A stretch of 64,000 nt of DNA, from positions 32,001 to 96,000 of the forward strand of contig CAVPVX010000006.1 in NCBI GenBank assembly GCA_963709345.1. The letters are read 5' to 3'. The DNA comes from an uncultured Actinomycetes bacterium (GTDB lineage: Bacteria > Actinomycetota > Thermoleophilia > UBA2241). The notes beneath the pieces were generated by a model, which did no database searches, was not told the origin of the DNA, and saw only the letters and a program-made list of their open reading frames with translations. Below are positions 1,101-63,178 of this stretch, piece by piece. Position numbers and translations under genes: made by a program. The first letter of the stretch is position 1. Every line of letters begins with the position of its first letter.

Positions 1101-2345
1101 CTACCGCGTCTCGGCGGGGGTCAGAGGCTTGAGGCCCTCGGCGAACGAGATGAGCTCCTGCCGGGTGAGGGCGCCGGTGACGAAGACCGCCCGGCGCCTC
1201 GTGGTGACGAACAGCGACGGCCCGCTCTCCTGGTACCAGGTGGAGGCCGTCGCTCCCGCGAGCGCGCCGTACTGCAGCGTGACCTCTTGATAGGAGATCT
1301 TCTCGGCGCCGGCCCCGTCCTGCCAGTCCGGGACGGGGGCGAGCGCACGCAGGGTGGCCGGTCCGACCTGTTCAACCGTGAACTGCGAGAGGCCGCGGGT
1401 GTACAGCTGCAGGACGGCCGTTCCATCCGGCTTGGCCGGGAGCTTCCGCACGCCCTCGTCGATCCAGATCACGGGCCGGAGTCCGGCCGGGGCGATCGCG
1501 ACGGTTGCGAGCTCGTAGCCGTCCGGGGCCAGCTCCGAGACCAGCGGGTCGTGGCCGGCCGCGCGTCCGGCCGCCGCAGGTGACGCGTGGTAGGCCTGGC
1601 GTCTGTCTCTGGTCGTCCGGATCCTGGCCCCCGCCGGAGTCTCGACGCCGTAGGTGGCGCCGTCCGGCGGCGGCGAGTCCCAGTCCACCGTCGCCGTGAA
1701 CGTCGAGAGGCTGTCTCTGTACCAGGTCACGACGCCGCTCCGCTGGTCCACGACGAGGTCGACGGCGCCGTCGTCCAGTGTGATCGCGGCGCGCCAGACC
1801 GCACGGTCGCCGTCTCTGAGCGGCTTGATGCCGACTGCGTCGTCCCGCTCCTCGACGGCCGTGCGCACGACGGCCGCGAGACCCTGGTAGTCGAGGGGGC
1901 TGCGTGTCGCGACCCGCCAGACCGGAGGCCACGCCCCGACCCTCCGGGAGAAGGCGGCTGTGGGCCCGGCGCCGGTCGCCGTCGTCTCGGTGCGCCCGGG
2001 GGCGTCATAGCCCGAGCGCGACGGCCGGAGGCTCAGCGCTCCCGCCGCTTCGGGGAGATCGGCGCTGCCCCCGGCGTTCCCCCCGGCCACGGCGCTGAAC
2101 GTGCCGACTTCGTCTGAGAGCCCCGCTTCGGCGCCGGCGGCGGTGACCCGCAGCGTGTAGGCGCCCTGGATGCCCCGGGTCGCCGGCGCCGTCACGGATG
2201 AGCTCGAACGAAGGAAGAAGATCCAGGCGACGGTGAGCACGAGGACGAAGGCGATGACCGTCACGGCGAAGCGCGGCGGCCGACGGCTGATTCGCGCCGA
2301 CCGGATCGTCTGGCTCGCCCGCTCGCGCGGGGACAAGGCGCTCAC
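1101..2345 (-). CDS. Single-pass membrane protein with LolA/RseB-like extracytoplasmic domain; paralog of 12711..14180
   Basis: N-terminal TM (FAVTVIAFVLVLTVAWIFF), LVVDQRSG and C-terminal GALTRQELISFAEGL, matching GDLTRNELTRIADSL in the paralog. GTG overlaps the upstream stop. Confidence 0.6.
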   Translation of the reverse strand: MSALSPRERASQTIRSARISRRPPRFAVTVIAFVLVLTVAWIFFLRSSSSVTAPATRGIQGAYTLRVTAAGAEAGLSDEVGTFSAVAGGNAGGSADLPEAAGALSLRPSRSGYDAPGRTETTATGAGPTAAFSRRVGAWPPVWRVATRSPLDYQGLAAVVRTAVEERDDAVGIKPLRDGDRAVWRAAITLDDGAVDLVVDQRSGVVTWYRDSLSTFTATVDWDSPPPDGATYGVETPAGARIRTTRDRRQAYHASPAAAGRAAGHDPLVSELAPDGYELATVAIAPAGLRPVIWIDEGVRKLPAKPDGTAVLQLYTRGLSQFTVEQVGPATLRALAPVPDWQDGAGAEKISYQEVTLQYGALAGATASTWYQESGPSLFVTTRRRAVFVTGALTRQELISFAEGLKPLTPAETR

Positions 2346-3211
2346 GACTCGATGACGACGCCCCCGCCCATGGGCACGATCGCCTCGGGGAGCGCGCGAC
2401 CCAGGGCGGCGGCGGCCTTGCGGCCGGTGCAGTGACACGGGGCGAGGGTGCGTGGCGCGCGTCGCGCCAGCTCGCCGGCGACGAGCGCGACGCGCGCCGA
2501 GTCCGCGTCCATCAGGTGGGTCCCCCCGATGAGCTTGACCAACGGGCGCCCGCCGGTGAGCAGGTCGATGTGCTCGAGCGTGGCGAGGACGCCGGCGTGG
2601 GCGCAGCCGAGGATCACCCAAAGGCCCTCCGGCGTGTCGACCCAGAAGGACTGGTCGTCCGGGACCGGGTCGGGCATGGTGCAGGCCGCGTCGAAGAAGA
2701 AGTCCGGGTCGCCGGGTTCGCGGGAGTCGTCTCGGGGCACGATGCCGGTGCACCAGACGCCCGGCACGACCTCGGTGGGCTCGTCCGTCCAGACGATGCG
2801 GTCCGCTGCGGCGAGCGCCGCCTCGCGGGACGCGACCGGCATGCCGATGGGCTCGGGTCGGCTGTGCCGCCGCCGTGAGACGCGCGGCTGAAGCGCGGCG
2901 GGATGCAGGTACAACCGCGCACGCGGCGCTGCCGCGAGCGCGACCGGCAGCCCGCCGGTGTGGTCGTAGTGCCCGTGGCTGAGAGCGATCGCGTCTGCGG
3001 TCCCGAGATCGACTCCGAGCCGTGCCGCGTTGTCGGCAATGGCGCGAGTCTCGCCGGTGTCCACGAGGAGGCGCCGCCCGGCGACCTCGATCCAGAGCGA
3101 GAGGCCGTGCTCCTTGCTCAAACCCGGAACGGCGCTCTCGTTGTCCATGAGGACGGTGATTCGCGGCAGTGCGACCGTCGGCGGTCTCTCGGGAGCGCCT
3201 GCGCCGCTCAC
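2342..3211 (-). CDS. MBL-fold metallo-hydrolase
   Basis: EHGLSLWIE, LLVDTG, SHGHYDHTGG, GCAHAG, GGTHL and PCHCTG motifs. Confidence 0.88.
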   Translation of the reverse strand: MSGAGAPERPPTVALPRITVLMDNESAVPGLSKEHGLSLWIEVAGRRLLVDTGETRAIADNAARLGVDLGTADAIALSHGHYDHTGGLPVALAAAPRARLYLHPAALQPRVSRRRHSRPEPIGMPVASREAALAAADRIVWTDEPTEVVPGVWCTGIVPRDDSREPGDPDFFFDAACTMPDPVPDDQSFWVDTPEGLWVILGCAHAGVLATLEHIDLLTGGRPLVKLIGGTHLMDADSARVALVAGELARRAPRTLAPCHCTGRKAAAALGRALPEAIVPMGGGVVIES

Positions 3212-3540
3212 AGGTGCGTCCTCGCGGCAGGCGGGTGCACCCGGTCCCCGCGCAGCAGCCGGCTCACCGCGTCGGTGACTTGCGGCACCACGCGCGGGAC
3301 CCAGACCAGCAGCCAAATGAGCAGGAGGGCAAGGATGACGGTCAGCGATCCGACGACGGCAAGGATGTTTCGCACCCAGAGCGTGTAGCAGATGAGGGCC
3401 GAGACGCCGAGGACCGTGACGAGCTGGCTCGAGACGGGAAGGCGTTCGTAGGCCACCCAGATCAGCCACACCCCGAGCACGATGAGCGCGCCGGTCACGG
3501 CGTAGGCGAGCAGCCACGTGGCGACGACGGGGAGCATCAT
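3208..3540 (-). CDS. Small multi-pass membrane protein, probably leaderless
   Basis: Three hydrophobic segments. TACAAT lies 6 nt upstream of the ATG. Confidence 0.6.
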   Translation of the reverse strand: MMLPVVATWLLAYAVTGALIVLGVWLIWVAYERLPVSSQLVTVLGVSALICYTLWVRNILAVVGSLTVILALLLIWLLVWVPRVVPQVTDAVSRLLRGDRVHPPAARTHL

Positions 3541-3666
3541 GGGCCGATTGTACCGCTCCCCGGCGGCGCGAGTGCTCAACTACCCCGTCTGAGCGGCTGG
3601 CGCGAACCCGTGACCGTGTGATTACGTAGCGCTGCCCGTTCCATGAGCGGACCGAGGAGGCAGGGC

Positions 3667-5136
3667 GTGAAGCGTAATCTGTTCGCCGGCCGCCGCCGCA
3701 GCGGCGGCCTCAAACTCGACGTCTTCACGGACGACGAGGTCCAGGATATCCACCTCGCGACCCTTGAGGTCCTGGAGCGCACCGGCGTGTGGGTCGAGAT
3801 CGACGAAGCGCTGGACATCTTCGCCGACGGCGGCTGTGTCGTCGAACGCGAGAGCCGTATCGTGCGCATCCCGCCACATCTGGTCGAGGACGCGATCCGC
3901 AGCGCGCCTGCCAGCATCACCCTCTGCGGCCGCGACCCGAAGAACGACATCGTGATCGAGGCTGGTCGCGTCGGCTTCAGCAACTTCGGCGAAGGTGTGC
4001 TCGTGATCGACCCTGACGACGGCGAGCTGCGCGCCTCCACGAAGCAGGACCTCGCCGACATCGCCCGGCTCTGCGACGCGCTTCCGTCGGTCGATGTGTT
4101 TGAGATCGCCGTCGGCGCCGGCGACATGCCCCCGCAGACGGCGTCGCTGCACAATCACGAGGCCGCGATCGTCAATCAGACGAAGCCGATCTCCGGAGGG
4201 CCGCTCGACGGTCGTGCCGTCAAGGCCAGCCTGCGGATGCTCGAGGCCGTGCAGGGCAGCCCGGAGGCCGTGCGCGAGCGGCCGATGATGATCATGGGCA
4301 CTTGCCCCGTCAGCCCGCTCAAGCTGGTCAAGGACTGCTGCGAGATCATCATCGAGGCGGCGCGCGCCGGTGTGCCCAGCTGCGTACTCAGCATGGCGAT
4401 GGCCGGCGGGTCCAGCCCGGTGACACTCGCGGGAACGCTGGTCACGCACAACGCCGAGGTGCTCGCCGGCGTCGTCCTCTCACAGCTCACCGAGCGCGGC
4501 GCCAAGGTGCTGTACGGTAGCTCGACGACCGCCATGGACCTGCGGCTCGCGGCCGCGTCGGTCGGCTCGCCGGAGCTCGCCCTGATCAGCGCCGGCGCGG
4601 CCCAGATCGCCAGGCAGTACCGCCTGCCGAGCTATATCGCCGGTGCGTAGGGCGACAGCAAGCTCGGTGACGCCCAGTCCGGTCACGAGAAGACCCTCAC
4701 GGCCTTGATGGCAGCGTTGGCAGGGACCAACCTGATCTACGGCCTGGGAATGATCGAGTCGGGCGTCACCTTCGACTACGCGCAGCTCGTCATGGACGAC
4801 GAGATCGCGCGCATGGTCAAGCACGTGGTCGGCGGTATCCGCGTCGACGACGAGGCGCTGGCCGTCGACGACATCCACGCTGTGGGAGCCTTCGGTGACT
4901 TCCTCAGCCTCGACGCGACGATGCGGCACATGCGCGAGGCGTCGCAACCGGAGCTGATCGATCGCCGCGTGCGCGAGGACTGGGAGGCGCGCGGCAGCAG
5001 CGACCTCTACCAGCGGTCGCTGCTCAAGGCGCGCCACATCCTCGAGACGCACCATCCGGAGCCGCTGCCCGACGACGTGCGGCGGCGCATACGTCAGATC
5101 GTGGACGACGCCGACGGGGATCTCGCCGGGGCGTGA
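3667..5136 (+). CDS. mttB: Trimethylamine:corrinoid methyltransferase, pyrrolysine-containing (in-frame TAG at 4648-4650)
   Basis: MttB motifs (IHLATLEVLERTG, SPVTLAGTLVTHNAEVLAG, GSPELAL), then YIAGA-TAG-GDSKLGDAQSGHEKT continuing in frame to TGA 5136. GAGGAGG RBS precedes GTG 3667. Confidence 0.92.
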
Positions 5137-5206
5137 CCGCGCCGGCGAGTCCGGGTGCCCGAGCCGGCCGGCGCGCGGATGTGGGACAACGCGCCGGCCC
5201 TCGGGG

Positions 5207-5893
5207 TCAGCGCGACGCGGCCAGGATGCGGGCGACGCCGCTTGGGCCCAAGGGCGGGTCGCTCCATCCGGTCGTCAGCTTGACCTTGAGCGTGTAGCTG
5301 CCGTCGCTCGGAGTGTACGAGAAGTCGCCCAGCCCGGTACCGGCGACCATCGGGGAGCCGGTCCACGGGTTCTTGGGCCACGCGTAGCCGGCGCCGAAGG
5401 CCTCCGGCGTCATGTCGGCGGCGGGGTAGCCGCCCGCGTGCGCCGCCGCGTACGCTTCCACGTAGCGCTGCAGCAGGAGCAGGTTCTGCTTCGCCGCCGT
5501 GTCACGCTCGCTCTTGAACCAGCGCGGCATGCCCCCGGTGAGCTTGTAGCTGCCCTTGGACAGGTGCATGACGAGCTTGTAGCTGGTGCCGCCGGCCCCG
5601 AGAGTGTACGTGAACGTTCCTCTCGACTTCCCCGCCGCCATGACTTTGCCCGTCCAGGGGTTGGCGGGCCAGATCGGCGTGGTGAGCCCGCCGCCCTTCT
5701 TGACCATCTTCGCCGGGGGGTACTTGAAGTGCCGCGCCTGGCCGTACTGGTTGATGTAGTTCTGCAGGAGGAGCCCGCTGGCCTGGACCTGTCGGTCGAC
5801 GAAGCCCAGGGCAGCGGCCCGGCCCGGCATCAGGGCGCCGGCGAGCAGCAGCACGGCGAGCGAGAGTAAGAGGATGGTGATACGTCTTGGCAC
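5207..5893 (-). CDS. Secreted protein with two WPxNPWTG pilin-head-like domains
   Basis: AGGAGG RBS, GTG start, Sec signal ending AAA, and repeats WPANPWTG and WPKNPWTG. Confidence 0.75.
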   Translation of the reverse strand: MPRRITILLLSLAVLLLAGALMPGRAAALGFVDRQVQASGLLLQNYINQYGQARHFKYPPAKMVKKGGGLTTPIWPANPWTGKVMAAGKSRGTFTYTLGAGGTSYKLVMHLSKGSYKLTGGMPRWFKSERDTAAKQNLLLLQRYVEAYAAAHAGGYPAADMTPEAFGAGYAWPKNPWTGSPMVAGTGLGDFSYTPSDGSYTLKVKLTTGWSDPPLGPSGVARILAASR

Positions 5894-5913
5894 GAGATAG
5901 CCTCCTGTGACGG

Positions 5914-6933
5914 TCACGGCTCCGAGGGGCTCGACTCGGCAGCCGGGGCCGGCGCGGTGCCGCCGGCCTCGAAGTCCCCCGAGTGCAGGTGGACGGTGAG
6001 CGTGAAGGCGCCGGCGGCGCCGGGAGCGTAGGTGTAGGCCCCCGGCGCTGTGCCCTGCCCAATCGCGCTGCCGGTGAGTGGATCCTGCGGCCAGTCGGGG
6101 TGCGCGGCGCCGACTGCGCCTCCGGCGGCGAGGTCGGCCACCTGCGGCAGCTCGCCGCCGTGCTGCAGGGACCACTGGCCGACGTAGCCGGAGAGGATGC
6201 GTGCGCTGCGCCGGAGGATCTCGTCCTCCAGGCTGGCGAGGAGGCGCAGCCACGGGTTCGTGGCGGCGGCGCCTCTCTGCACGTAGTCGCTCTTGAGGGC
6301 GCGGTGGAGGCGCAGGGTGTAGGCCGAACGGTCGGCGGTCACGCCGTACGAGAACGAACCGTGGTCTGAGCGCTGCTGCATGTCGGCGTGGTCCCACGGG
6401 TTGCTCGGCCAGTAGCCGCAGCCCGGCTGCTTGCCTACGGCGCCGTCGCCGGCCACGTCAGCGCTCGCCGGATAGCGCCCGCCGTGGGCGCGGGCGTACT
6501 GCTCGATGTAGTGGCGAATGAGGTTGAGGCCCTCCTCGCCGCGGTGGTCGTAGGCGAGCTTCATGGAGTGTGGCATGCCCCCGCGAACGGTGACGACCCC
6601 GCCATCCAGATACCCTGTCAGTCGGTATCGCCGTCTATTGGTCGTGACCGTGTACGTGTAGTGACCGCGGCCGCTCCCCGGTGTGAGTCGAGCTCCCGTC
6701 CACGGATCGCGTGGCCACCACGTCGAGTCGAGGCCTCCCGGCCGGACCATGGCGCGCGAGGGAAACTGGAAGTACTTGGCCGCTCCGGCGCGGTCGATGA
6801 GACCTCGCAGGGCCATGATGCTCTCGCGCATCTCCGTGTTCGACGACGCGGCCTGCACCGGCGCTGCGCCGGCGGTGAGCAGGCACGCGGCGACCGCGGC
6901 GATGGCAGCGATGGCGCAGGCGTGTCGAACCAT
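5914..6933 (-). CDS. Secreted protein with three WPx(N/D)P pilin-head-like domains
   Basis: Signal peptide ending VQA; repeats WPRDPWTG, WPSNPWDH and WPQDPLTG. Confidence 0.75.
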   Translation of the reverse strand: MVRHACAIAAIAAVAACLLTAGAAPVQAASSNTEMRESIMALRGLIDRAGAAKYFQFPSRAMVRPGGLDSTWWPRDPWTGARLTPGSGRGHYTYTVTTNRRRYRLTGYLDGGVVTVRGGMPHSMKLAYDHRGEEGLNLIRHYIEQYARAHGGRYPASADVAGDGAVGKQPGCGYWPSNPWDHADMQQRSDHGSFSYGVTADRSAYTLRLHRALKSDYVQRGAAATNPWLRLLASLEDEILRRSARILSGYVGQWSLQHGGELPQVADLAAGGAVGAAHPDWPQDPLTGSAIGQGTAPGAYTYAPGAAGAFTLTVHLHSGDFEAGGTAPAPAAESSPSEP

Positions 6934-7079
6934 GGTGGGTCGTCTCCCTTCGCGCTAAGTGTGGCCACCGGGCGGGGGCCGGTCAAGCCGCGAGCCGTCG
7001 GGCGCGCTGCTCACCCGCCTGATACGATTCGGCACGAGCGCCGCGGGGCCTGCGGCCGGCGCGCGATCTCGATTCGGAG

Positions 7080-8483
7080 GTGATGCCGGTGGATGCAGGG
7101 AACGCGAAGATCCCGACGCGCATGGGCGACGGCTTCATGGTCGAGATGACCTGCGCCGAGCTGCGCGCCGACCTCGAGGAGGCAACGCAGGAGGCGGCGC
7201 GCAAGGCCAAGGCGCCGCCGCTCTCCCAGGACGAACTCGACCATCTCCTCGACATCTATGCCTCGCGGGCGGCGTTCACCGCCGTCGACATCGGCGACCA
7301 GGTGGTCCTCAGCTGCGACGGCGGCGGTAGCAAGCTGACCGGCACCGACCTGCTCGACCTGCTCGAGAGCGAGCAGCGCCTCGGCCAGGACATCCTTGAG
7401 CTCTGGCACATCGAGTACAGCTACAAGGCGATCAAGACCATCCTGCCGTTCCAGCAGCAGGTGATGCAGAACGTCCAGCTCATGTGCACGGCCCCGGTGC
7501 AGTACGGGGCGCAGCCGAACCTCGCCTTCTACAGCAAGCCCGACGGTCCGGCCGGCAACTTCTTCGAGATGTTGCCGCGCGGGGACATCGCCGGGGCGCG
7601 CGCCGCTATGGAAGAGGCCATGGAGCACGCCACCAAGGACTTCATCTATGTGGGCGAGGGCATGCTCGACGCCGGCGCTGACGGCATGGACTTCGACACC
7701 ACCGGCGGCGCCGGCGACGCCGACTTCTTCAGCACGCTGCGCGCCGTGAAGCACCTGCGCGAGAGGTACCCCGACGCCGGTATCGAGGTCGGCATGGCCG
7801 GCGAGTTCGTGATCGGCGTGCACGGCGAGCTCGAGTGGGATGGCAGGCGACTCGCCGGCCTCTGGCCGAGGGAGCAGCTCGAGCTTTGCCAGGACGCCGG
7901 CGTCACCATCTTCGGGCCGGCGGTCAACATCCGCACGGGCAGGAGCTGCGCCTGGAACGCCGCGTACTCGATCACCGCGATGAAGCCCTGCATGGATGTC
8001 GCGCGTATCCCGGTCCACCCGAACGTGGGGCAGGGGGTCTGCGGTGTGCCCGTCAACGGCTACCCGGGCGAGGACGCCTCGTCGCGGGCGGCCAAGGCAC
8101 ACGTCGATCTGCTGCGCTGCGACGGGTTGTAGGTGGGCTCGGGTGACTCCAGAGGCATGGACGTCACCCACGCGCTCGCCGCGGGCATGGGCGGGATGCG
8201 CACGGCCGGAGACCTGGTCGCGCGCATGCAGATGGCCCGCGGGATGCGCCTCGAGCCGGCGAAGCGGTACGTCGCCGGCAAGCTGGGCTGCACGGTCCGC
8301 GACCTCAGCGACAGCTGCGCGATGGAGCAGATCCGCGGCGAGAGGGGTCTGGGGAGGATCCTCGACCACTCGAACCTGCACCCCGGCGAGCCCAACGCGA
8401 TGATGGCCAAGTTCCGGATCGCCGAGCTGCTGGGTGTGCCGATCAGCTCGGTGGAGCGGTTCCGGGAGCTGGCAGGGATCTGA
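7080..8483 (+). CDS. mtbB: Dimethylamine:corrinoid methyltransferase, pyrrolysine-containing (in-frame TAG at 8130-8132)
   Basis: MtbB motifs (TRMGDG, YSYKAIK, FDTTGGAGDADF, GMAGEFVIGVHG, IPVHPNVGQGVCGVP), then CDGL-TAG-VGSGDSRGMDVTHALAAGMGGMRTAGDLVARMQ in frame to TGA 8483. The start may be GTG 7089. Confidence 0.92.
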
Positions 8484-8602
8484 CGGCGTCTTGAGGAGCG
8501 CTGCAGTCTTCGCCGGATGCTGCCGATGGAGATGGCAGGCAGCGCTCGCGTGGTCGCAAGGGCTGCGGATCGCTGCCGGGTCCATGGACGGGAGGCAAGA
8601 AG

Positions 8603-8986
8603 ATGAAGCGTTGTACGAGCATCGCCCTCGTCGCCGTCCTGATGCTCCTCGCCGCCGGGGTCTTCGCCGGCTGCGGGTGTCAGGAAGCGGTTGAGGACGA
8701 GACCACCGGCCAGATCGACCAGGCCAAGGACGCCGCCGCCAAGGTCCAGCTGATGATGATCAAGACGGGGATCCAGGCCTTCATCGCCTCGAGCGGTCAG
8801 GCGCCGGCCGACGCCTCGGAGGCCACGCTCGGCGGCTTCGTCAGCCCGTGGCCCGTCAATCCCTGGACGCAGGCGCCGATGAAGGCCGGTGACGGCGTGG
8901 GCGACTACGTCTACACGCCGGGCGCCGGCGCGGAGTTCACGCTCGCCGTGCACCTTTCGGACGGCTCGACTGCTACGGCGCCGTGA
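8603..8986 (+). CDS. Lipoprotein with one WPVNPWT pilin-head-like domain
   Basis: Lipobox FAG-C; WPVNPWTQAPMKAGDGVGDYVYTPG...FTLAVHLSDG. Confidence 0.78.
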   Translation: MKRCTSIALVAVLMLLAAGVFAGCGCQEAVEDETTGQIDQAKDAAAKVQLMMIKTGIQAFIASSGQAPADASEATLGGFVSPWPVNPWTQAPMKAGDGVGDYVYTPGAGAEFTLAVHLSDGSTATAP

Positions 8987-9011
8987 CGTCGGGACCGGGT
9001 GCCGGGCGTGT

Positions 9012-9039
9012 GCCGGCCGGCGCGACGGCGCCGGCCGGC
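9012..9039 (+). terminator. GC-rich hairpin, probable terminator
   Basis: GCCGGCCGGCGC-GACG-GCGCCGGCCGGC forms a perfect 12-bp stem just after the lipoprotein stop. No U-tract. Confidence 0.45.
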
Positions 9040-9105
9040 CCGTGGCCCCGTGCTTGAGGGCGGCAGAGGCGCTTGATACCCTAGGTCTCGGTGGGGGGAG
9101 ACGCG

Positions 9106-10212
9106 ATGGGCTTCTTCAGCGGCTGGCGTGGCAAGCTCGTGCTCGTGGCGCTGGGCGTGGCCTGCCTCCTCGGCGTGACCCTGCCTGTGGCCGCCACCGA
9201 GGGCGACGCCACCCCGACCTGGAAACTCAAGAAGTATCAGAGTCGCGGCTGGGATCGCAGCTACAAGTGCGATCTGGCGCAGGAGATGCGCAAGGTGCCG
9301 CGCGTCGTGGTCTACGGCGGTTCACGAGGGCTGCGCATGGATCCGGCGACGATCAAGCGCCGCACCGGACTCACGGCCTTCAACTTCGCTCTCCACAACG
9401 GCCGGCCTGAGGACGCCTGGGCCATCACCGACTGGCTCATCGACAGCCATCCGGACAAGCCCCCTGCAGTGGTCTGGTGCATGCAGGCGACGACCCTCGC
9501 CGACGCGCCGATGGCGCCCGGGCTCTTCAACGACGAGCGCCTCTCCCAGGCGTTTCCCAAGGCGCTCGTCAAGGCCAAGCTGGCGTGGGCGATGCGTCAG
9601 CCGAATCGCAACGTGCTCTCCGGCCGTCGCTACGGCTTCGACGGGATGCTCTGGTGGAACAGCTACGACCGCAAGCGCAAAGAGGGTCTGAGCCTGCAGC
9701 AGTCGCTGACGCACTATCTCGACACCGACATGCTCGCCAGGGCGGGCAACCGCAAGGTGCCGAAGAACACCCGGGCGATGGCGTACTTCGAGCGCACCCT
9801 TCGCCTGCTCAACGTCAGCCACATCAAGCCCGTGATCGTCATCATGCCCTACCATCCGAGAGTGCTGAAGGCGTTCATGTCGGTCGGATGGGGCGTCAAG
9901 CAGAGCTGGCTGGTCAACTATCTCAAGCGGTTGCAGAAGTACTACGATTTCCGTGTCGTCAATTGCCTCCGTATCGGGACCTTCGGCGGCAGCCCCGACG
10001 GCTTCTTCGACGGTTCGCACCTCACGGCCGGTAACTCACGGCGGCTTCTCCGCTACGTCATGAACAAGGCGCCGGGGTGCTTCCGCGTGCCCAAGCCGAC
10101 GCCGACGCCGACTCCATCCGCGAGTCCGAGCGCGAGCCCCTCCACTGTGCCGGCTCCGGCCTACGTACCGGTTCCCGAAGACACGAGCGCACCCGCCGAC
10201 TACCTCGAGTAG
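9106..10212 (+). CDS. Secreted SGNH/DltD-like protein with Pro/Thr/Ser tail
   Basis: Signal peptide, VVVYGGSR and FFDGSHL (GxS...DxxH), PTPTPTPSASPS tail. Confidence 0.6.
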   Translation: MGFFSGWRGKLVLVALGVACLLGVTLPVAATEGDATPTWKLKKYQSRGWDRSYKCDLAQEMRKVPRVVVYGGSRGLRMDPATIKRRTGLTAFNFALHNGRPEDAWAITDWLIDSHPDKPPAVVWCMQATTLADAPMAPGLFNDERLSQAFPKALVKAKLAWAMRQPNRNVLSGRRYGFDGMLWWNSYDRKRKEGLSLQQSLTHYLDTDMLARAGNRKVPKNTRAMAYFERTLRLLNVSHIKPVIVIMPYHPRVLKAFMSVGWGVKQSWLVNYLKRLQKYYDFRVVNCLRIGTFGGSPDGFFDGSHLTAGNSRRLLRYVMNKAPGCFRVPKPTPTPTPSASPSASPSTVPAPAYVPVPEDTSAPADYLE

Positions 10213-10258
10213 GGGCGCCGCGGGCAGGCGCGCCGCGCCGGCGTCTGCCGGGGGCTGC

Positions 10259-11635
10259 TCAGGCGCCGATCAGTCTCTTGACGTAGCCGGCGCGCTTGCT
10301 CGGCCTCCCCGTGCGCGCCTCCACGGCGTCGGCGCTGTCCATCGCCGCGAGAGCGGCGTTGACCCCGAGCCAGCGCAGCGGTTCCGGCTCCCACGGCTTC
10401 GAGCGGTGGCCGACCCAGGGCAGCCGTGTCAACTCCGTCTCGTGTTCGAGGATGAGGTCGCGCAGCGTGCGCGCCGCAAGATTGGTGGTCGAGACGCCGT
10501 CGCCGACATACGCGCCCGCCCAGGCCATGCCGCTCGGGCGGTCCAGGCCGACGGAGCTGTACCAGTCTCGCGACGCGGCGATCGCGCCGCCCCAGTGGTG
10601 CGTCACCCGGGCGTCGCCGATGGTGGGGAACAGCTCGCCGAGAAGGCGCCGGAGGTGGTCCTGCACCTTCGTCACGCGCTCGTAGCGCTCGCTCAGCCGC
10701 GAGCCGAAATGGTACGGTGCGCCACGGCCGCCGATGGCGATGCGACCATCGTCGGTGTGCATCGCGTAGAAGATGAGGAAGCGGAAGTCGCCGAACACCT
10801 CGTGGTCGCTCCATCCGACCTCGTCCCAGAAGGAGTCCGGGAGCGGTTCGGTGCCGATCATCAAGGAGTAGATCGGCACCACGGCGCGCTCGTAGCCGGG
10901 CAACTCTGGTGTGAACGCTTCGGTGGCGCGCACGACGACGTCGGCGCGGACGTCGCCGGACGCGGTCGCGGCGAGGTGGGGTTCGATGCGCGTCACCGGG
11001 GTGCGCTCGTAGATCGGCACCCCGAGGCGCTCCACCACGTCGGCCAGGCCGCGCGCGAGGCGGGCCGGGTCGACGGCGGCGCCATGCGGCGTGTAGACGG
11101 CGCCGAGGCACCCGGCCACTCTGATGCGCTCCCGCATCTCGGCGGCGCCGAGCATGGCGTAGTCGTCCTCCCCGAATCCCCAGCTGCGCTCGTAGTCGAG
11201 AGCATCCCGGGCGCGCAGCAGTTGGACGGGGGTCGTGGCCAGGTCCAGCTGCCCGCCGATGTGGAAGCGCGCGTCGATCGCCTCGTCGGCCACGACGCGC
11301 GCTATCTCGGTCACCGTCGCGTGCAGTGCGCGCTGCTGATCGACGACAGCTTGGCGACCGTGCGTCTTGGCGGCTGCTTCGCGAGACCCGGGGAACGTCG
11401 TGTGGCACCAGCCGCCGTTGCGCCCGGACGCGCCGAATCCGGCGATCTCGCGCTCGAGTACCGCGACGCGCAGGTGGGGATCGGCCTTCTTGAGGTAGTA
11501 GGCGGTCCAGAGGCCGGTGAATCCGCCGCCGACGACCGCGACGTCCACGGCGAGCGGCCCGGGCAGTGAGGGACGCGGCGTCAGCACGCCGGGCACACCG
11601 TCGAGCCACATGCTGCGGGCGCGGTAGTCGGTCAT
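10259..11635 (-). CDS. FAD-dependent amine/amino-acid oxidoreductase (PuuB/DadA family)
   Basis: VVGGGFTGL, GFGASGRNGG and C-terminal WEPEPLRWLG. Confidence 0.88.
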   Translation of the reverse strand: MTDYRARSMWLDGVPGVLTPRPSLPGPLAVDVAVVGGGFTGLWTAYYLKKADPHLRVAVLEREIAGFGASGRNGGWCHTTFPGSREAAAKTHGRQAVVDQQRALHATVTEIARVVADEAIDARFHIGGQLDLATTPVQLLRARDALDYERSWGFGEDDYAMLGAAEMRERIRVAGCLGAVYTPHGAAVDPARLARGLADVVERLGVPIYERTPVTRIEPHLAATASGDVRADVVVRATEAFTPELPGYERAVVPIYSLMIGTEPLPDSFWDEVGWSDHEVFGDFRFLIFYAMHTDDGRIAIGGRGAPYHFGSRLSERYERVTKVQDHLRRLLGELFPTIGDARVTHHWGGAIAASRDWYSSVGLDRPSGMAWAGAYVGDGVSTTNLAARTLRDLILEHETELTRLPWVGHRSKPWEPEPLRWLGVNAALAAMDSADAVEARTGRPSKRAGYVKRLIGA

Positions 11636-11772
11636 GTCAAGCTCCTTTGAGGTGAAGGCGTCCTGCACGGCTCGTGGCGAGCGTGGCGTCTCGTGAGAGG
11701 AAGGGATGGGCAGGAGGGACGTACTCGCGACGGCAGGCGACGGGCGAGCGGCTGGTCACGCGGGCCGTCCCA

Positions 11773-41978: not shown

Positions 41979-43490
41979 TCAGCCGGCGCGCTCGGCGATG
42001 CTCGCGCTCACGGCGCGCAGCATGCCGGCCGCCTTGTGCAGCGTCTCGCGGTACTCGCGCACCGGCACCGAGTCGGCGACGATACCGCCGCCGGCCTGCA
42101 AGAAGAGGCGGTCACCCTTGCGCACGAGCGTGCGAATGATGATGTTCAGATCGAGCTGCCGTTCGGCGATCCAGCCGAAGGACCCGGTGTAGGGGCCGCG
42201 GCGGACGGTCTCGAGCTCGTCGACGATCTCCATGCAGCGGACCTTGGGGCAGCCGGTGATGGTGCCGCCGGGGAACATCGCCTTGACGAGACCGACGGCG
42301 TCGTGCGAGGGGTGCAGGCGGCCGCGCACATTGCTGACGATGTGGATCACGTGCGAGTAGAACTCGTTGACCATGAGCTCGTTGACGCGCACGGTGCCGT
42401 ACTCGCACACCTTGCCGAGGTCGTTGCGCTCGAGGTCGACGAGCATGATGTGCTCGGCGCGGTCCTTGGGGTCGAGGTTGAGCTCGTCGGTGAGGTGTTC
42501 GTCTTCCGGCTGGAGGGCGCCTCGCGGCCGCGTACCGGCGATCGGCCGGGTCTCGGCCCAGCCCTCCGCGTCGAGCGAGACCAGGCGCTCGGGCGACGAG
42601 CTGATCAGCTCGTAGTCGCCGAAGTGGAGGTACCCGGCGAAGGGCGACGGGTTGACGGCGCGCAGCGTGCCGTAGAGGTGCAGGCTCGGGAGCGAGTAGC
42701 AGAGGTCGAGGCGCTGCGAGAGGTTGGCCTGGAAGATGTCGCCGGCGAAGACGTACTCCCGGGTCCGGGCGACAACGGCTTCGTACTCGGCTCTGGTGAA
42801 GTTGCTGCGGAACACGGGGAGGTCGTTGCCGTGGAGCACGGCGGCGGAGGCGTGGCGCGCGCGCTCGAGGGCTGCGCCCACGCGCGCGCCTTGTGCCGCC
42901 GCCGCGTCGCCGTCCGCGGCGATGCGGTCGACGAGCAGGGCCTCCCCGGTCGCCAGGTCGTACCGCAGCAGGCGCCCGGGGAGGAACACGTCGATATCGG
43001 GTATGCTGAGGTCGTCGCGCACCGTGTCCGGCAGCCGCTCGAGGTAGCGCACGGCGTCGTACGAGAGCAGGCCGACGAGCGCCTCGGCTTCGGGCAGGCT
43101 CGTGATCTCACCTTCATCGCCGCCCACATCGCTGCGGCTCACCTGCTCGCCGTTGCGGTCCGTGAACGGCCGTGCGGCCAGCCGCGTCGCGGCACGCAGC
43201 GCCTCGAACGGCGCCAGACGGGCGAGCCCGCCCGCCCGCGCCGCCAGCTCACGCGCCGAACGCCCGCCCGCCCGCGAGACGGAAGATCCGGGTGTGACGG
43301 CGACGACGTCGCGTCGCGCGCGTAGCCGGAAGACCGGATCCCATGCCAGGTAGTGCCGGCGGGCCAGCTGCGCCGATCCGCCCGCCGAATCCAGCAGGAC
43401 GACCGGCGCCTCGCCCTCGAGACCGAGAGCCCGCACGAGCGCGACCGGATCGAGGTCCTGTGCCTGGAAGCGGGTGACGTGAGGGTTCAT
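41979..43490 (-). CDS. pabB: Aminodeoxychorismate synthase component I / TrpE-family chorismate-binding protein
   Basis: GDIFQANLS, SSSPER, AEHIMLVDLERNDLG and FPGGTITGCPK. Confidence 0.82.
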   Translation of the reverse strand: MNPHVTRFQAQDLDPVALVRALGLEGEAPVVLLDSAGGSAQLARRHYLAWDPVFRLRARRDVVAVTPGSSVSRAGGRSARELAARAGGLARLAPFEALRAATRLAARPFTDRNGEQVSRSDVGGDEGEITSLPEAEALVGLLSYDAVRYLERLPDTVRDDLSIPDIDVFLPGRLLRYDLATGEALLVDRIAADGDAAAAQGARVGAALERARHASAAVLHGNDLPVFRSNFTRAEYEAVVARTREYVFAGDIFQANLSQRLDLCYSLPSLHLYGTLRAVNPSPFAGYLHFGDYELISSSPERLVSLDAEGWAETRPIAGTRPRGALQPEDEHLTDELNLDPKDRAEHIMLVDLERNDLGKVCEYGTVRVNELMVNEFYSHVIHIVSNVRGRLHPSHDAVGLVKAMFPGGTITGCPKVRCMEIVDELETVRRGPYTGSFGWIAERQLDLNIIIRTLVRKGDRLFLQAGGGIVADSVPVREYRETLHKAAGMLRAVSASIAERAG

Positions 43491-57828: not shown

Positions 57829-57858
57829 TTGCGCCGACGCTAAGGATTTCCTTACAAT
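57829..57858 (+). promoter_or_regulatory. Sigma70-type promoter for the riboswitch operon
   Basis: TTGCGC-18 nt-TACAAT, ending 7 nt before the riboswitch P1. Confidence 0.65.
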
Positions 57859-57865
57859 GGCGGAG

Positions 57866-57966
57866 CTTCTCCGAGCGCCGGCTTCCTAAGGGCCTTGGCC
57901 TATGGAGCCGGATGCCGGCAGGGTACAGCGGGAAACCGCCGTGTCTCCCAGTGCGGAAAGGAGAAG
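57866..57966 (+). ncRNA. Moco RNA motif riboswitch lacking P3 (Tuco/Wco type)
   Basis: P1 CTTCTCC/GGAGAAG; CCGAG; P2 with CCTAAG...TATGG receptor; CAGGGT...GGAAAC tetraloop...CTCCC; GGAAAGGAG. Upstream of wtpAB. Confidence 0.85.
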
Positions 57967-58137
57967 GCGACCTTCGGGCCTTTCCGCGTGCGGTGGGCTC
58001 TTCTCTTCGCCCCCGTCCGCGGCGCCGTGTGCACATGGCGGGCCCTCGCCGTCTTCCGCCTCGCCGCTCTCGGACGCACGGCCTCTCGCCCCCTCGCCTC
58101 GGGGCAGCGGCAAGGGAACCTGGGGAGGAGTGAGAGC

Positions 58138-59817
58138 ATGAAGACGAGACTGACCTTGGTGGTGGCCGCCGCGGTCGTGCTGCTGCTGGCGAGCGTCGCC
58201 CCGGCGCTGGCGCGCGCGGAGCGGGGCGGCGACGCCGTCCCCTACGCGTGGCTCCTGCAGTTGCGGGGCGCGAAGAAGCAGACCATGACCAGCATGGCGT
58301 TCCGCAACTGGACCAAGCAGCGGTTCGTCGAGCGGACCGTCGTCGACGACAACAAGACGCCCGACGACCCGAGCGACGACCTCAGCTACACGGGTGTCGC
58401 GCTCTGGCGCCTCGTCGGTCGCGTCGACGACAAGAACCCGGCGACCTTCAACGTGAAGCGCGCCACCACGGGCGCCGGCTACAACGTCGTCGTGGAGGCC
58501 GTCGACGGCTTCAGCGCCGTCTTCACCAGTGCCGAGGTCGCGACCCTCAAGAACAAGCTCGTGGTCGCCAACCGCGTCAACGGCGTGCCGCTCGACCTGG
58601 GCGCCGCCTCGATCAAGAACGCCGGCGAGCCGGACCAGTACGCCGCCTGGAAGCCGACCTGGCCGCTCAAGCTGGTCTCCAGTGACGGCAGCATCTTCGG
58701 CAACCGCAAGCCGGCGGGCGTGGTGCGCATCAGCATCGTGCCGGCGACGGCGGACGCCCGCGCGGTCGACGCCGTCCCCTACGCGTGGCTCCTGCAGTTG
58801 CGGGGCGCGAAGAAGCAGACCATGACCAGCATGGCGTTCCGCAACTGGACCAAGCAGCGGTTCGTCGAGCGGACCGTCGTCGACGACAACAAGACGCCCG
58901 ACGACCCGAGCGACGACCTCAGCTACACGGGTGTCGCGCTCTGGCGCCTCGTCGGTCGCGTCGACGACAAGAACCCGGCGACCTTCAACGTGAAGCGCGC
59001 CACCACGGGCGCCGGCTACAACGTCGTCGTGGAGGCCGTCGACGGCTTCAGCGCCGTCTTCACCAGTGCCGAGGTCGCGACCCTCAAGAACAAGCTCGTG
59101 GTCGCCAACCGCGTCAACGGCGTGCCGCTCGACCTGGGCGCCGCCTCGATCAAGAACGCCGGCGAGCCGGACCAGTACGCCGCCTGGAAGCCGACCTGGC
59201 CGCTCAAGCTGGTCTCCAGTGACGGCAGCATCTTCGGCAACCGCAAGCCGGCGGGCGTGGTGCGCATCAGCATCGTGCCGGCGACGGGAGCCACCGCGAG
59301 CACACCCCCTTCTGAGCAGGCGGCCGGTGACACATCGACGGCAGGGGCGAAGGCCGCGTCGGACGACCCGCCGGCCGGAGGCTGGACGCTGACCCTGCAA
59401 GGCAGGCTCAAGCGCGTGCTCAAGATCGCGAAGTTCCCGGTCAAGGTGGCCTGGGACGGCCGCAAGGCGGGCAACATCAACCCTTCGCTGCGGTACGTGT
59501 ACAAGGGCCAGTCGCTCTACAGGCTGCTCGCGCTCGTCGACGACAAGCGCCCCCGGTCGTTCAACCTGGCCCAGGCGAAGAAGGGCTACACGATCCAGTT
59601 CATCTGTCGCGACGGCTACAAGCCGAAGATCAAGAGCAGGCAGGTCCTGAAGAACGGCAAGCCGCGCAAGACCTGGATCGTCGCCAAGCTCAAGGCAGGC
59701 AAACGGCTTGAAGGTAAGGAGGCCCCCTTCCGCTTCGTCGGGGGCCCGCCGATCACGCAGCCGTTCAACAACAAGCTGTCCGCCCACGGCGTCATCAGGA
59801 TACGGCTCATCTTCTGA
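58138..59817 (+). CDS. Secreted basic protein with three sulfite-oxidase/Oxidored_molyb-like domains (two identical)
   Basis: GGAGGAG RBS and signal peptide (ALA). Each domain shows YxGxxLxRL...DG(F/Y)...P(L/F)(K/R)(L/F)V...GV(V/I)RI. Confidence 0.7.
   Translation: MKTRLTLVVAAAVVLLLASVAPALARAERGGDAVPYAWLLQLRGAKKQTMTSMAFRNWTKQRFVERTVVDDNKTPDDPSDDLSYTGVALWRLVGRVDDKNPATFNVKRATTGAGYNVVVEAVDGFSAVFTSAEVATLKNKLVVANRVNGVPLDLGAASIKNAGEPDQYAAWKPTWPLKLVSSDGSIFGNRKPAGVVRISIVPATADARAVDAVPYAWLLQLRGAKKQTMTSMAFRNWTKQRFVERTVVDDNKTPDDPSDDLSYTGVALWRLVGRVDDKNPATFNVKRATTGAGYNVVVEAVDGFSAVFTSAEVATLKNKLVVANRVNGVPLDLGAASIKNAGEPDQYAAWKPTWPLKLVSSDGSIFGNRKPAGVVRISIVPATGATASTPPSEQAAGDTSTAGAKAASDDPPAGGWTLTLQGRLKRVLKIAKFPVKVAWDGRKAGNINPSLRYVYKGQSLYRLLALVDDKRPRSFNLAQAKKGYTIQFICRDGYKPKIKSRQVLKNGKPRKTWIVAKLKAGKRLEGKEAPFRFVGGPPITQPFNNKLSAHGVIRIRLIF
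58230..59287 (+). repeat. Apparently perfect 521-bp tandem duplication (period 537 bp, 179 codons)
   Basis: 58230-58750 equals 58767-59287 by eye. Off-frame ORFs 58248..58685 and 58785..59222 translate identically. Confidence 0.9.
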
Positions 59818-60966: not shown

Positions 60967-60997
60967 GCCCGCGACACATGGCTGAAGGAGGCCGACG

Positions 60998-62062
60998 ATG
61001 AGCTCGAGCGGTATCGGCGGCGGGCCGCGCCGGGCGGAGCGCGCCGCCCGCGCCCGGCGCTCGAGGCGGCTGGCGCTGGCCGTGGCGGTCCTGGCCTTGG
61101 CGCTGGTCGCGCTGGTCGCCGCCTGCGGCGACTCGAGCGACCAGTCGCCGCCGTCCCCCGGTCCTTCCGGGCCCGTCGTCCTGACCGTCCGGGGCGAGGA
61201 CGGGACGGAGACGTTCACGATGAACCAGCTGCGGGCGCTGCCGGCCTACGAGGGTTACGCCGGCAGCAAGAGCAGCACCGGCGTGATCACCCCGCCCGCA
61301 GTGTTCAAGGGCGTGCCGATCGTGGAGCTCGCCGACCTCGTCGGCGGTATCAGCCGGTCCAACGGCGTGACGATGCTCGCCAAGGACGGCTACGGCATGA
61401 CGTTCTCGTATCGTCAGATCATGGAGAGTGGATTCACGACCTACGACCCGGCGACCGGGGAGGAGGAGCCGGCCGACGGCCGGCTCACGGTCATTCTCGC
61501 CTACGAGCGTGACGGCGGACCCATCGGCGAAGACGATGGACCACTGAGGCTCGCCGTCGCCCAGGATGAACCGGCCCAGGTGACCGACGGCCACTGGGCG
61601 ATCAAGTGGCTCGATACGGTGTCGGTGACCGAGGCGTCGGCGCAGTGGAAGGTGCAACTCGAGGGCGCGGTGCCCGGCAAGCTGGACCGCGCCGCCTACG
61701 TCAACTGCGCTTCACCCGGATGCCACGGCTCCGGCTGGGTCGACGCCGACGGCGCACGCTGGGAGGGCATCCCGCTCTATCTCGTCTGCGGTCTCGTCGA
61801 CGACGCGAAGAAGCATGACGAGGGGGCCTACGCCGCGGCTCTGGCGGAGAGAGGATACGACATCATCATCGAGACGGTCTCCGGCGAGGTCGTGACCATT
61901 GATTCTCGAGACATCGCCGGCCGGAACAGCGTCGTCCTCTCGGCGAAGGTCGACGGGGGAGAGTTGCCGGACGAGCACTTTCCCCTGCGGCTCGTCGGTC
62001 CGGGTCTGAGCGATGGTCAGATGCCGGGCGGGATCGCGCGCATCGTCGTGCGCGTGAAATAG
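60998..62062 (+). CDS. Lipoprotein paralog with two Oxidored_molyb-like domains and CxxxxCH motif
   Basis: Lipobox VAA-C; FTMNQLRALP, FKGVPI, AKDGYGMTF, GPLRLA, IKWL and CASPGCHG. Confidence 0.75.
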   Translation: MSSSGIGGGPRRAERAARARRSRRLALAVAVLALALVALVAACGDSSDQSPPSPGPSGPVVLTVRGEDGTETFTMNQLRALPAYEGYAGSKSSTGVITPPAVFKGVPIVELADLVGGISRSNGVTMLAKDGYGMTFSYRQIMESGFTTYDPATGEEEPADGRLTVILAYERDGGPIGEDDGPLRLAVAQDEPAQVTDGHWAIKWLDTVSVTEASAQWKVQLEGAVPGKLDRAAYVNCASPGCHGSGWVDADGARWEGIPLYLVCGLVDDAKKHDEGAYAAALAERGYDIIIETVSGEVVTIDSRDIAGRNSVVLSAKVDGGELPDEHFPLRLVGPGLSDGQMPGGIARIVVRVK

Positions 62063-62074
62063 GGGGCGGCGACC

Positions 62075-63178
62075 TTGGGGTCTGGGGATCGCCGCCGGTG
62101 GCTCAGCCCAGCCACGGCCCGGGCCGTGGCTGGGCTGCTGCTGCTCACCGCCGCGGCCGCGCTGCTCGGCGGCTGCGGCTCAGACGAGCGCCGCGTCAAG
62201 CTCATGTACGCCGGTAGCCTCATCGGTCCGTTCGAGCGCCTGGCGGCGGGGTTCGAGCGCTCTCACCCCGGTGTCGATGTCGTCACCGAGGGCCACGGCA
62301 GTATCCAGGTGCTGAGGCACGTCACCGAGCTCGGTGACCTCGTCGACCTGGCGGTGAGCGCCGACGAGCAGCTGATGGCGCCGTTCTTCTACGAGCGCGA
62401 CGACCCCGCGACCGGGCGACCGTTCGCGTCGTGGTACTGCACGTTCGCGACCAACCGCATCGTGCTCGCGATCTCTCCGAAGAGCCCGCTGGCCGGCGAG
62501 CTGACCTCGGGCTCCTGGTACCGACGGCTCACGCATCCCGACGTGCGCTTCGGTCTGTCCGACCCCCGGCTGGATCCCGCCGGCTACCGCGCGCTCATGG
62601 TCCTGCAGCTGGCGGAGCGTTACTACGGTGCGCCCTTTCTGTTCGAGGACATGGTCATGGGCCGGTTCACGACTCCCGTCATCGTCCGGCACGCCGGGAG
62701 GAAGGACGTCATCCGGGTGCCCGAGATCCTCGAGACGCGCAGCGGGTCCAATCTGGTGCTGCGGGGCGCCAGCATCCAGCTCGTCGCGCTGCTCGAGTCG
62801 GGCGACCTGGACTGCGCTTTCGAGTACGAGAGCGTGGCCCGCCAGCACGGGCTGCTCTACGTGCGGCTTCCGGCGGCGGTCGATCTCAGCGATCCGAAGC
62901 TGCGGGATGACTACGGGCGCGTGGAGGTCCAGCTCGACTTCCGCCGGTTCGCGCGCGTGCAACCGCGCTTTCGGGGAGACCTGATCCGCTACGCGTTCAC
63001 CATTCCCGCCAACGCTCCGGAGCCAGGGCTGGCTCGCGAGTTCGTGGCCTTCATGCTGGGGCCCGAAGGACGCCGGATCCTCGCAGCCGAACACCAGCCG
63101 CTGCTCGCGCCGCCGGATCTTGATGGGGCGGCGGCCGTGCCGGAGGAGGTGAGGCGGGCATGCGAGGGCTCCAAGTGA
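62075..63178 (+). CDS. wtpA: Tungstate/molybdate ABC transporter substrate-binding lipoprotein
   Basis: Lipobox LGG-C; YAGSL, EGHGS, SDPRLDPAGYR, AFEYESVA and YAFTIP. Confidence 0.88.
   Translation: MGSGDRRRWLSPATARAVAGLLLLTAAAALLGGCGSDERRVKLMYAGSLIGPFERLAAGFERSHPGVDVVTEGHGSIQVLRHVTELGDLVDLAVSADEQLMAPFFYERDDPATGRPFASWYCTFATNRIVLAISPKSPLAGELTSGSWYRRLTHPDVRFGLSDPRLDPAGYRALMVLQLAERYYGAPFLFEDMVMGRFTTPVIVRHAGRKDVIRVPEILETRSGSNLVLRGASIQLVALLESGDLDCAFEYESVARQHGLLYVRLPAAVDLSDPKLRDDYGRVEVQLDFRRFARVQPRFRGDLIRYAFTIPANAPEPGLAREFVAFMLGPEGRRILAAEHQPLLAPPDLDGAAAVPEEVRRACEGSK

Follow-up and report, generated by a model that had tools for sequence, protein, structure and literature searches.

The window analysed here, a stretch of 64,000 nucleotides (nt) from an uncultured actinobacterium of the class Thermoleophilia (GenBank assembly GCA_963709345.1, contig CAVPVX010000006.1), has a G+C content of 69.5% and carries on its plus strand a gene of the MtbB family, mtbB, with an in-frame TAG. 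The use of pyrrolysine (Pyl) is textbook knowledge for methanogens and is known in a restricted range of Firmicutes and Deltaproteobacteria. For the archaeal enzymes MtbB and MttB, the chemistry, a transfer of the methyl group to a Co(I) corrinoid, is established. In the window the gene order is mttB, two minus-strand genes for secreted proteins, mtbB, a lipoprotein gene, a gene for a secreted protein of unknown kind and a DAO-family gene (Table 1). Since minus-strand genes lie between them, mttB and mtbB are neighbours and do not form one operon. The same arrangement is found again in related loci.

The frame at 7080-8483 is single and unbroken, comprising 467 residues with the TAG counted as a residue, and is closed by the TGA at 8481-8483. 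Its sole in-frame TAG is found at 8130-8132, making it codon 351 for a start at 7080 and codon 348 for a start at 7089. The surrounding protein sequence reads ...LLRCDGL-O-VGSGDSRGM...TAGDLVARMQ, where O stands at the TAG, and 116 codons follow it. The G+C content at third codon positions (GC3) amounts to 0.93 upstream of the TAG and 0.94 downstream, indicating an undiminished coding signal. The product matches Pfam PF09505 (Dimeth_PyL; 3.2e-150) with residues 12-463 on model positions 4-462 of 463, as well as the NCBIfam equivalog TIGR02368 ([dimethylamine--corrinoid protein] Co-methyltransferase) with 371.1 bits against a cut-off of 369.1 (model positions 7-464 of 466), while a PDB sequence search with the protein gives no match at E up to 1. 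A first-pass annotation, made from the letters alone, had described an mtbB gene at 7080-8483 that continues in frame for 116 codons beyond the TAG. The family, the read-through frame and the 3' end hold good, whereas the start is placed differently by the orthologues.

GTG 7089 is probably the start codon, GTG 7080 being situated 9 nt too far upstream. In an alignment of 20 orthologues, selected from 41, the codon corresponding to GTG 7089 is GTG or ATG in 16; one of the remaining four has GTA, and the other three are offset, their GTG or ATG lying 2-3 nt farther upstream. At 7080 (GTG) and 7083 (ATG), the orthologues do not conserve a start and often have a non-start codon. From GTG 7089 the gene has 464 codons, with ATG 7083 and GTG 7080 as alternative starts. 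A purine-rich GGAGG-like block is conserved in orthologues 6-9 nt upstream of GTG 7089, and a candidate promoter element is retained farther upstream (Table 1); a consensus scan of 3400-10400 for sigma-70 promoters and terminators returned no site.

The TAG codon of mtbB and the RNA element that follows it

By four independent tests at the sequence level, the TAG at 8130-8132 falls on the pyrrolysine column of the MtbB family. When the two halves of the protein are scanned apart against TIGR02368, residues 13-349 cover model positions 7-354 and the piece from residue 353 starts at position 358, so that the TAG corresponds to position 356. In Methanosarcina barkeri MtbB1, the Pyl is presumably residue 356. 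In the part of its supplement available here, a field study aligns truncated environmental fragments to M. barkeri MtbB (O93661) up to residue 355 (PMC10805028). An exhaustive HMMER search of 1.84 billion representatives of 50%-identity clusters yields 572 relatives at E up to 0.001, among which distant near-complete proteins of 353-356 residues all end at query residue 350 (P0126, P0127, P0128, P0129 and P0137, with 45, 43, 42, 41 and 37% identity, respectively). The P0129 cluster includes archaeal proteins of Candidatus Methanomethylophilaceae, each 354 residues long and named [dimethylamine--corrinoid protein] Co-methyltransferase by NCBI. The archaeal fragments, of 354-355 residues, end with ...KVDGV (DGV or DGL) opposite ...RCDGL of the window's protein, one column before the TAG. 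Among the 120 closest matches listed, most have about 336-346 residues and cover 72-75% of the query, gene callers having stopped at the same place and split nearly every copy at the TAG. The first-pass annotation had made its reading depend on the coincidence of the TAG with the Pyl column, and this coincidence is found both in the family model and in the ends of the archaeal fragments.

Contigs from one genome per species were scanned for relatives. Of the 480 stretches that encode one, the best 80 were kept, and these make up 77 loci. In these loci, tblastn gives 119 matches, of which 93, in 75 loci, span the TAG column, and the codon is TAG in all 93, down to an identity of 52%; the other two loci end before the column. 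Every one of the 69 full-length copies recovered as a single match has exactly one TAG and no in-frame TGA or TAA, and a MAFFT alignment of these copies with the window's gene has TAG at the column in 70/70. Around the TAG runs the motif D-G-[LY]-O-[VAI]-G-x-G-D. Its D, G, G, G and D do not vary in any of the 70 sequences, and the residue after the TAG is Val in 61 of them, Ala in 7 and Ile in 2. All paralogue groups conserve the residues on either side of the Pyl and the downstream AGDLVARM block. As a control for terminator usage, the mtbB copies' own stops are TAG in 47, TGA in 37 and TAA in 2 cases (n=86), and the family of the gene at 9091-10212 ends with TGA in 10 and TAG in 11 (n=21). 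In loci L034, L036 and L041, the 3'-terminal part of the mtbB copies shows frameshifts or additional stops, which could reflect either assembly error or decay.

Comparison with 41 orthologues gives differences at the first, second and third codon positions of 0.085, 0.068 and 0.263 before the TAG and of 0.074, 0.069 and 0.209 after it, with amino-acid identities of 0.868 and 0.895, respectively. This bias toward the third position, together with the identity of 0.895, indicates that purifying selection on the coding sequence persists downstream of the TAG.

The companion gene mttB carries an amber codon at its own Pyl site, as had been pointed out in the first-pass annotation, which counted two Pyl enzymes 2 kb apart. 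Its product matches the solved trimethylamine methyltransferase 7XCM (1.4e-123), and an RNA element of the PYLIS_3 type begins at its TAG (Table 1). The column is TAG in 37/37 matches at 61-91% identity, and 15 further matches of the MttB superfamily in the loci, at 30-36% identity, have sense codons (G, S, L, V, H, I, F) there.

The Rfam model PYLIS_2 matches the window over its whole length, with model positions 1-3 (UAG) on the TAG of mtbB. A PYLIS structure for mtbB has been proposed before (PMC3639795, as far as its available passages go). In seven related loci, 19 further PYLIS_2 and 4 PYLIS_3 matches are found at or above the gathering score, and those whose coordinates were inspected start at the TAG of mtbB or mttB, in paralogous copies as well. 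A consensus structure had been derived from a 29-sequence nucleotide alignment before the Rfam match was known. In it 95.7% of cells are paired, compared with 36-42% when the partners are slid, and the covariation of 0.211 exceeds all 500 shuffles (mean 0.098). Its distal hairpin, in which 8198-8209 pair with 8214-8225, is the second stem of Rfam PYLIS_2. Three of its pairs swap between G-C and C-G at third codon positions, and two pairs are in the top 0.1% of an empirical null of 22,244 column pairs. The fraction paired is a weak measure when taken alone, because the split between 42 orthologues and 28 paralogues inflates it for many unrelated column pairs, and tree-aware contrasts were added for this reason. 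For the pair 8198/8225, about 5.5 of 6 independent contrasts co-switch and none goes in the opposite direction (p ~0.03); the other two switching pairs have too few contrasts, none of them opposite in direction, so that one of the three pairs reaches p ~0.03.

The first hairpin of PYLIS_2 is poorly kept and has six non-canonical pairs in the window sequence. In the orthologue group, the best 45-nt segment starting 3-12 nt after the TAG has a median folding energy of -22.6 kcal/mol, compared with a gene mean of -14.4. A conserved hairpin immediately after the UAG was considered and rejected, as the paralogues have a median percentile of 0.11 and only 4 of 28 are at or below 0.05. The distal hairpin starts 66 nt past the UAG, which would be too far to touch a ribosome paused there.

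Relatives and paralogues in Thermoleophilia

The closest loci (80-92% identity) are labelled uncultured Thermoleophilia, Actinomycetota or Actinomycetes, apart from two labelled delta-proteobacterial, and the best 80 of the 480 stretches are nearly all labelled Thermoleophilia. A phylogeny of MtbB had been called for in the first-pass annotation. A quick IQ-TREE tree was built from the part before the TAG, with 77 rows comprising the window, 69 locus copies and 7 outside sequences. The 70 Thermoleophilia copies form one clade (SH-aLRT, the Shimodaira-Hasegawa-like approximate likelihood ratio test, 100), apart from archaeal and other representatives. The window's group has 42 rows (SH-aLRT 100), and the other groups have 12, 3, 3, 3 and 6 rows (SH-aLRT 99-100), with one singleton in addition. 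The tree thus provides the groups and their separation from archaea, whereas the monophyly of the Thermoleophilia genes is provisional, because similarity to the query governed the choice of loci and no named Firmicutes or deltaproteobacterial MtbB was among the rows. A radiation specific to Thermoleophilia into at least six groups of TAG-bearing mtbB paralogues is accordingly a provisional result of the sequence comparison, and it is the less expected part of the finding. Within the fetched loci, which come from 60 assemblies, 44 assemblies have one TAG-bearing mtbB copy, 6 have two, 5 have three, 3 have four and 2 have five.

Some paralogues are gathered in islands. Such islands, for example in L062 (7808-12987), L070, L076 and L061 (7805-21367), have two or three TAG-bearing mtbB copies arranged around a tRNA-Thr gene, in company with an ATP-binding cassette (ABC) transporter (PF04392, PF02653), TetR regulators, a Pyl-type mttB and genes for corrinoid proteins. 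Genes for corrinoid proteins adjoin paralogous mtbB or mttB in 5 of the 77 loci (L058, L061, L066, L067 and L068), which are paralogue islands with Pyl-type and non-Pyl genes of the MttB superfamily, TetR regulators and ABC transporters. These five loci are from four assemblies, each of which has an orthologue of the window's mtbB as well.

Homologues with a standard residue at the Pyl column also occur. P0133, which has Trp, is full length and 32% identical. The P0057 cluster, also with Trp, is 84% identical; its 310-residue members and P0046 begin only at position 129 of the window's protein, P0122 begins farther in, and the other members are fragments of 85-193 residues. P0057 has an internal deletion of 29 residues that is not present in P0046. 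P0123 has Gln at the column. These Trp- or Gln-bearing homologues may be decayed or re-purposed copies.

Decoding of the UAG and the role of the enzyme

The gene is very probably an intact one for a corrinoid-dependent methylamine methyltransferase of the MtbB family, the single internal UAG of which is decoded as pyrrolysine. We infer Pyl as the residue inserted, dimethylamine as the substrate, the identities of the partners and where the methyl group goes. If the enzyme works as archaeal MtbB does, dimethylamine would be bound and activated in the active site by the side chain of Pyl, and the methyl group would be transferred to Co(I) in the corrinoid of a small, separate MtbC-like B12-binding protein with release of monomethylamine. 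From there a second methyltransferase would carry the methyl group further, with tetrahydrofolate as the likeliest acceptor in bacteria; in this host the acceptor presumably cannot be coenzyme M. Together with the Pyl-type mttB 2 kb upstream, the enzyme would allow stepwise conversion of trimethylamine to dimethylamine and further to monomethylamine, a route suggested by the homology of the two products to archaeal MttB and MtbB. The corrinoid protein, a reductive activator and the pyl genes would be encoded elsewhere in the genome.

Several observations weigh against this assignment. The cut-off of TIGR02368 is exceeded by only 2 bits, and the identity to named archaeal MtbB is only about 40%, and for both reasons the dimethylamine specificity of the product is not secure. 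Neither a corrinoid protein nor RamA nor a second-step methyltransferase is encoded in the window or next to any of the 42 copies of the orthologue group. Likewise, no pylS, pylB, pylC, pylD or tRNA-Pyl was detected by ARAGORN and by Pfam and NCBIfam models in the window or in the flanks of the 77 loci, the model scans covering GC3-filtered open reading frames, in part those of at least 200 residues, with one representative per cluster. TAG is also an ordinary terminator, ending seven credible genes of the window, so that Pyl decoding must be context-dependent or compete with a release factor. Finally, Trp is found at the Pyl column of natural MtbB homologues (P0133 and the P0057 cluster).

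The absence of partner genes nearby had already been noted in the first-pass annotation, which took the pathway to be dispersed. In the window, Pfam and NCBIfam models reveal no B12-binding or corrinoid protein, RamA, URO-D-type methyltransferase, MtmB or pyl gene among open reading frames picked by codon-position G+C and those filling the gaps. A six-frame search of the 64 kb with a hidden Markov model built from corrinoid proteins of Thermoleophilia gives a best E of 0.49, and the same model finds its targets in the five loci with corrinoid genes mentioned above. RamA, MT2 and mtmB were seen neither in the window nor in the flanks of the 77 loci. Since the four assemblies with a corrinoid gene beside an mtbB paralogue hold the window's orthologue as well, dispersal is a fair reading.

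It is conceivable, if unlikely, that the enzyme is decoded with Pyl and acts on a substrate other than dimethylamine; a satellite copy of this kind, with no adjoining corrinoid gene, may use another methylated amine. The at least six well-supported paralogue groups in the quick tree, the occurrence of up to five TAG-bearing copies per assembly in the fetched loci, the identity of only about 40% to named archaeal MtbB with the borderline score for TIGR02368, and an amine-oxidase-like neighbour dependent on flavin adenine dinucleotide (FAD) in 37 of 78 sources are all consistent with such a change. On the other hand, conservation of the Pyl-flanking residues and of the AGDLVARM block extends to all groups, and the gene adjoins a Pyl-type mttB that scores well above the trimethylamine equivalog cut-off and whose reaction product is dimethylamine.

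Read-through with a standard amino acid, by a suppressor or near-cognate tRNA, is highly improbable. Such decoding could account for the lack of visible Pyl machinery in the sequences examined (the window and the flanks of the 77 loci) and would agree with the Trp of natural homologues. However, TAG is kept in 93/93 even though one base substitution would turn it into a sense codon, which suggests that the encoded residue is irreplaceable by a standard one. The conservation of the PYLIS_2 element and the TAG at the Pyl site of the companion mttB argue in the same direction, and pyrrolysyl-tRNA synthetase (PylRS) has been reported in Actinobacteria (PMC9630628, in the passages available).

The codon next to the TAG is GTG in the window, and an open reading frame with a GTG start (8133-8483) could be taken as a separate gene: the TAG would then be a true stop, and an N-terminal protein of 347-350 residues would assemble with a C-terminal protein of 116 residues re-initiated at GTG 8133. 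This arrangement is hardly credible, as the Val codon is often GTC or GTA in the 29-sequence alignment and is replaced by an Ala codon in 7/70, none of which is a start codon, and no Shine-Dalgarno sequence precedes GTG 8133. To our knowledge, every known member of the MtbB family is a single Pyl-containing chain. Inactivation by a nonsense mutation, which the in-frame stop would mean under the standard code, is refuted by the comparative data, namely TAG at the identical column in 93/93 down to 52% identity, purifying selection and high GC3 downstream and a conserved RNA element, in agreement with the first-pass annotation, where a chance nonsense mutation had been judged very unlikely.

Beyond the decoding of a single gene, a broader picture can be offered tentatively, as a possibility with the odds somewhat against it. 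Uncultured Thermoleophilia might be a large, overlooked group of Pyl-decoding bacteria, in which MtbB was acquired once and diversified into at least six lineages that keep both the UAG and PYLIS_2. Some of these lineages, including satellite copies like the window's mtbB that would have lost their adjacent corrinoid partner, might have moved to new methylated-amine substrates, all this in a genome of 69.5% GC where UAG is still a common terminator, even of mtbB itself.

Compared with archaeal MtbB (M. barkeri MtbB1 and the Methanomethylophilaceae proteins), the window's gene belongs to the same Pfam and NCBIfam families over its full length and shares the UAG at the same column, PYLIS_2 after it and the AGDLVARM block. 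In contrast, no more than about 40-45% of the residues are identical, the host is bacterial and has 69.5% GC, and the gene has no mtbC-type corrinoid gene adjacent to it, standing alone behind its own intergenic region with secreted-protein genes on its flanks. In non-Pyl, MtgB-type homologues of MttB (PDB 2QNE, 9YCE), the Pyl position has proved replaceable with a change of substrate, whereas the window's mtbB keeps the TAG and belongs to the Pyl-type branch. Systems of the Acetohalobium and Desulfitobacterium type have mttB, mtbB and mtmB with UAG, and their pyl genes are often close to the methyltransferase genes. Common to these bacteria and the present one is that UAG encodes Pyl in methyltransferases and is still a stop elsewhere, but the former are low-GC Firmicutes or Deltaproteobacteria, and here no pyl gene was seen within 10 kb of the fetched copies. 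A table of Pyl-decoding bacteria lists, in the part available, Acetohalobium arabaticum and relatives of Desulfitobacterium and Desulfosporosinus with methylamine methyltransferases (PMC3639795).

The enzyme family and its Pyl coding are thus already known, and Pyl-type mttB and mtbB in Actinobacteriota are already in print: in the passages available, Actinobacteriota metagenome-assembled genomes are reported to express both Pyl-encoding genes in the field (PMC10805028; Ellenbogen et al., 2023). Those genes are from the same phylum and the same two enzyme families and were likewise recognised by truncation at the amber codon; the same passages do not say which class they come from and contain no description of locus structure, of a paralogue radiation or of a PYLIS element. 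A survey from 2022 counts PylRS genes in only two Actinobacteria, as far as its available part goes (PMC9630628). A literature search by titles and abstracts, with most subscription journals outside its range, found nothing that describes this type of locus or a radiation of MtbB in Thermoleophilia. What is modestly new is therefore the breadth in Thermoleophilia and the paralogue radiation, as compared by word search with the supplement of PMC10805028, and the mtbB gene itself brings no mechanistic novelty.

The window and its relatives show Pyl-type dimethylamine and trimethylamine methyltransferases to be a regular feature of an uncultured actinobacterial class, which bears on the question of who consumes methylamines and hence competes with methylotrophic methanogens. 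It also bears on automatic annotation, in which gene callers split nearly every copy at the TAG, and on the use of UAG as both sense and stop codon in a high-GC genome: the termination of seven window genes and of 47 of the 86 mtbB copies by TAG indicates that UAG has two meanings in these organisms.

Neighbouring genes and other features of the window

Table 1. Features of the mttB-mtbB region, with positions in the window
Feature	Position	Strand	Basis
mttB, Pyl-type trimethylamine methyltransferase	3643-5136	+	TAG 4648-4650; PF06253 1.1e-98; TIGR02369 707 bits (cut-off 525)
PYLIS_3 in mttB (Rfam)	4648-4747	+	64.8 bits (38); begins at the mttB TAG
Secreted-protein gene with 'WPxNPWTG' repeats	about 5207-5830	-	sequence
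Secreted protein with three 'WPxNPWTG...Y.Y' repeats	5914-6933	-	family in 28/78 sources
Possible extended -10 promoter element TGATACGAT	7020-7028	+	kept in closest orthologues; suggested by alignment
Probable Shine-Dalgarno sequence GGAGG	7076-7080	+	8 nt before GTG 7089; suggested by orthologue alignment
mtbB coding sequence (MtbB / Dimeth_PyL family)	7089-8483	+	family models; start alignment; purifying selection on both sides of TAG
PYLIS_2, 'pyrrolysine insertion sequence mtbB' (Rfam RF02509)	8130-8229	+	model 1-100 of 100; 60.5 bits (gathering score 36)
Distal hairpin of PYLIS_2 (GC-rich stem, AGAC loop)	8198-8225	+	compensatory changes at third codon positions
Lipoprotein with one 'WPxNPWTG' repeat, directly downstream of mtbB	8603-8986	+	family in 31/78 sources
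Secreted protein with Pro/Ser/Thr-rich tail, ending with TAG in the window	9091-10212	+	family in 21/78 sources
FAD-dependent DAO-family amine-oxidase-like enzyme	10259-11668	-	PF01266 3.4e-55; family in 37/78 sources

The counts of neighbour families in Table 1 refer to 78 sources, the window included. Three genes flanking mtbB share the repeat pattern 'WPxNPWTG ... G.Y.Y ... L.V.L' in one to three copies, which we take to be reminiscent of the C-terminal domains of pseudopilins. The products of these three genes (about 5207-5830, 5914-6933 and 8603-8986) have no match in Pfam, NCBIfam or PDB, although the synteny of the genes is kept in about 28-31 of the 78 sources; the protein encoded at 9091-10212 likewise has no match in the three collections. 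The DAO-family product gives distant matches to glycine oxidase 1RYI (6.5e-8) and dimethylglycine dehydrogenase 4PAB, and it matches TIGR03329 ('putative aminophosphonate oxidoreductase') below the cut-off; as a lead, it could act on an amine product.

The window is otherwise ordinary chromosome and encodes purine synthesis, S6-SSB-L9-DnaB, SufBD, EPSP synthase and superoxide dismutase. At only one other site would read-through of a TAG give a long product: the plus-strand gene at 60986-62062 ends with TAG, and a 371-codon gene for a solute-binding protein (62063-63178, plus strand) follows directly in the same frame. The two are probably separate genes, and this TAG was set aside as a third recoding site, the downstream solute-binding protein being complete in itself. 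On the minus strand at 43189-43281, inside an open reading frame for a chorismate-binding enzyme, ARAGORN calls a 93-nt 'tRNA-???' with a four-base anticodon; no Rfam tRNA reaches the gathering score there, so the call is probably false. A 1.2-kb stretch at 1098-2341 has no open reading frame with a Pfam match, and a 720-codon open frame (1104-3263, minus strand) overlaps a gene of the metallo-beta-lactamase fold in another frame. Near the other end of the window, a molybdenum/tungsten cofactor riboswitch (Rfam RF01055; 60.6 bits against 36) is found at 57857-57979 on the plus strand, where it overlaps the 5' end of a stop-to-stop frame of no assigned family (57844-59817); two genes with molybdopterin-oxidoreductase-like domains and an ABC transporter are situated downstream of it.

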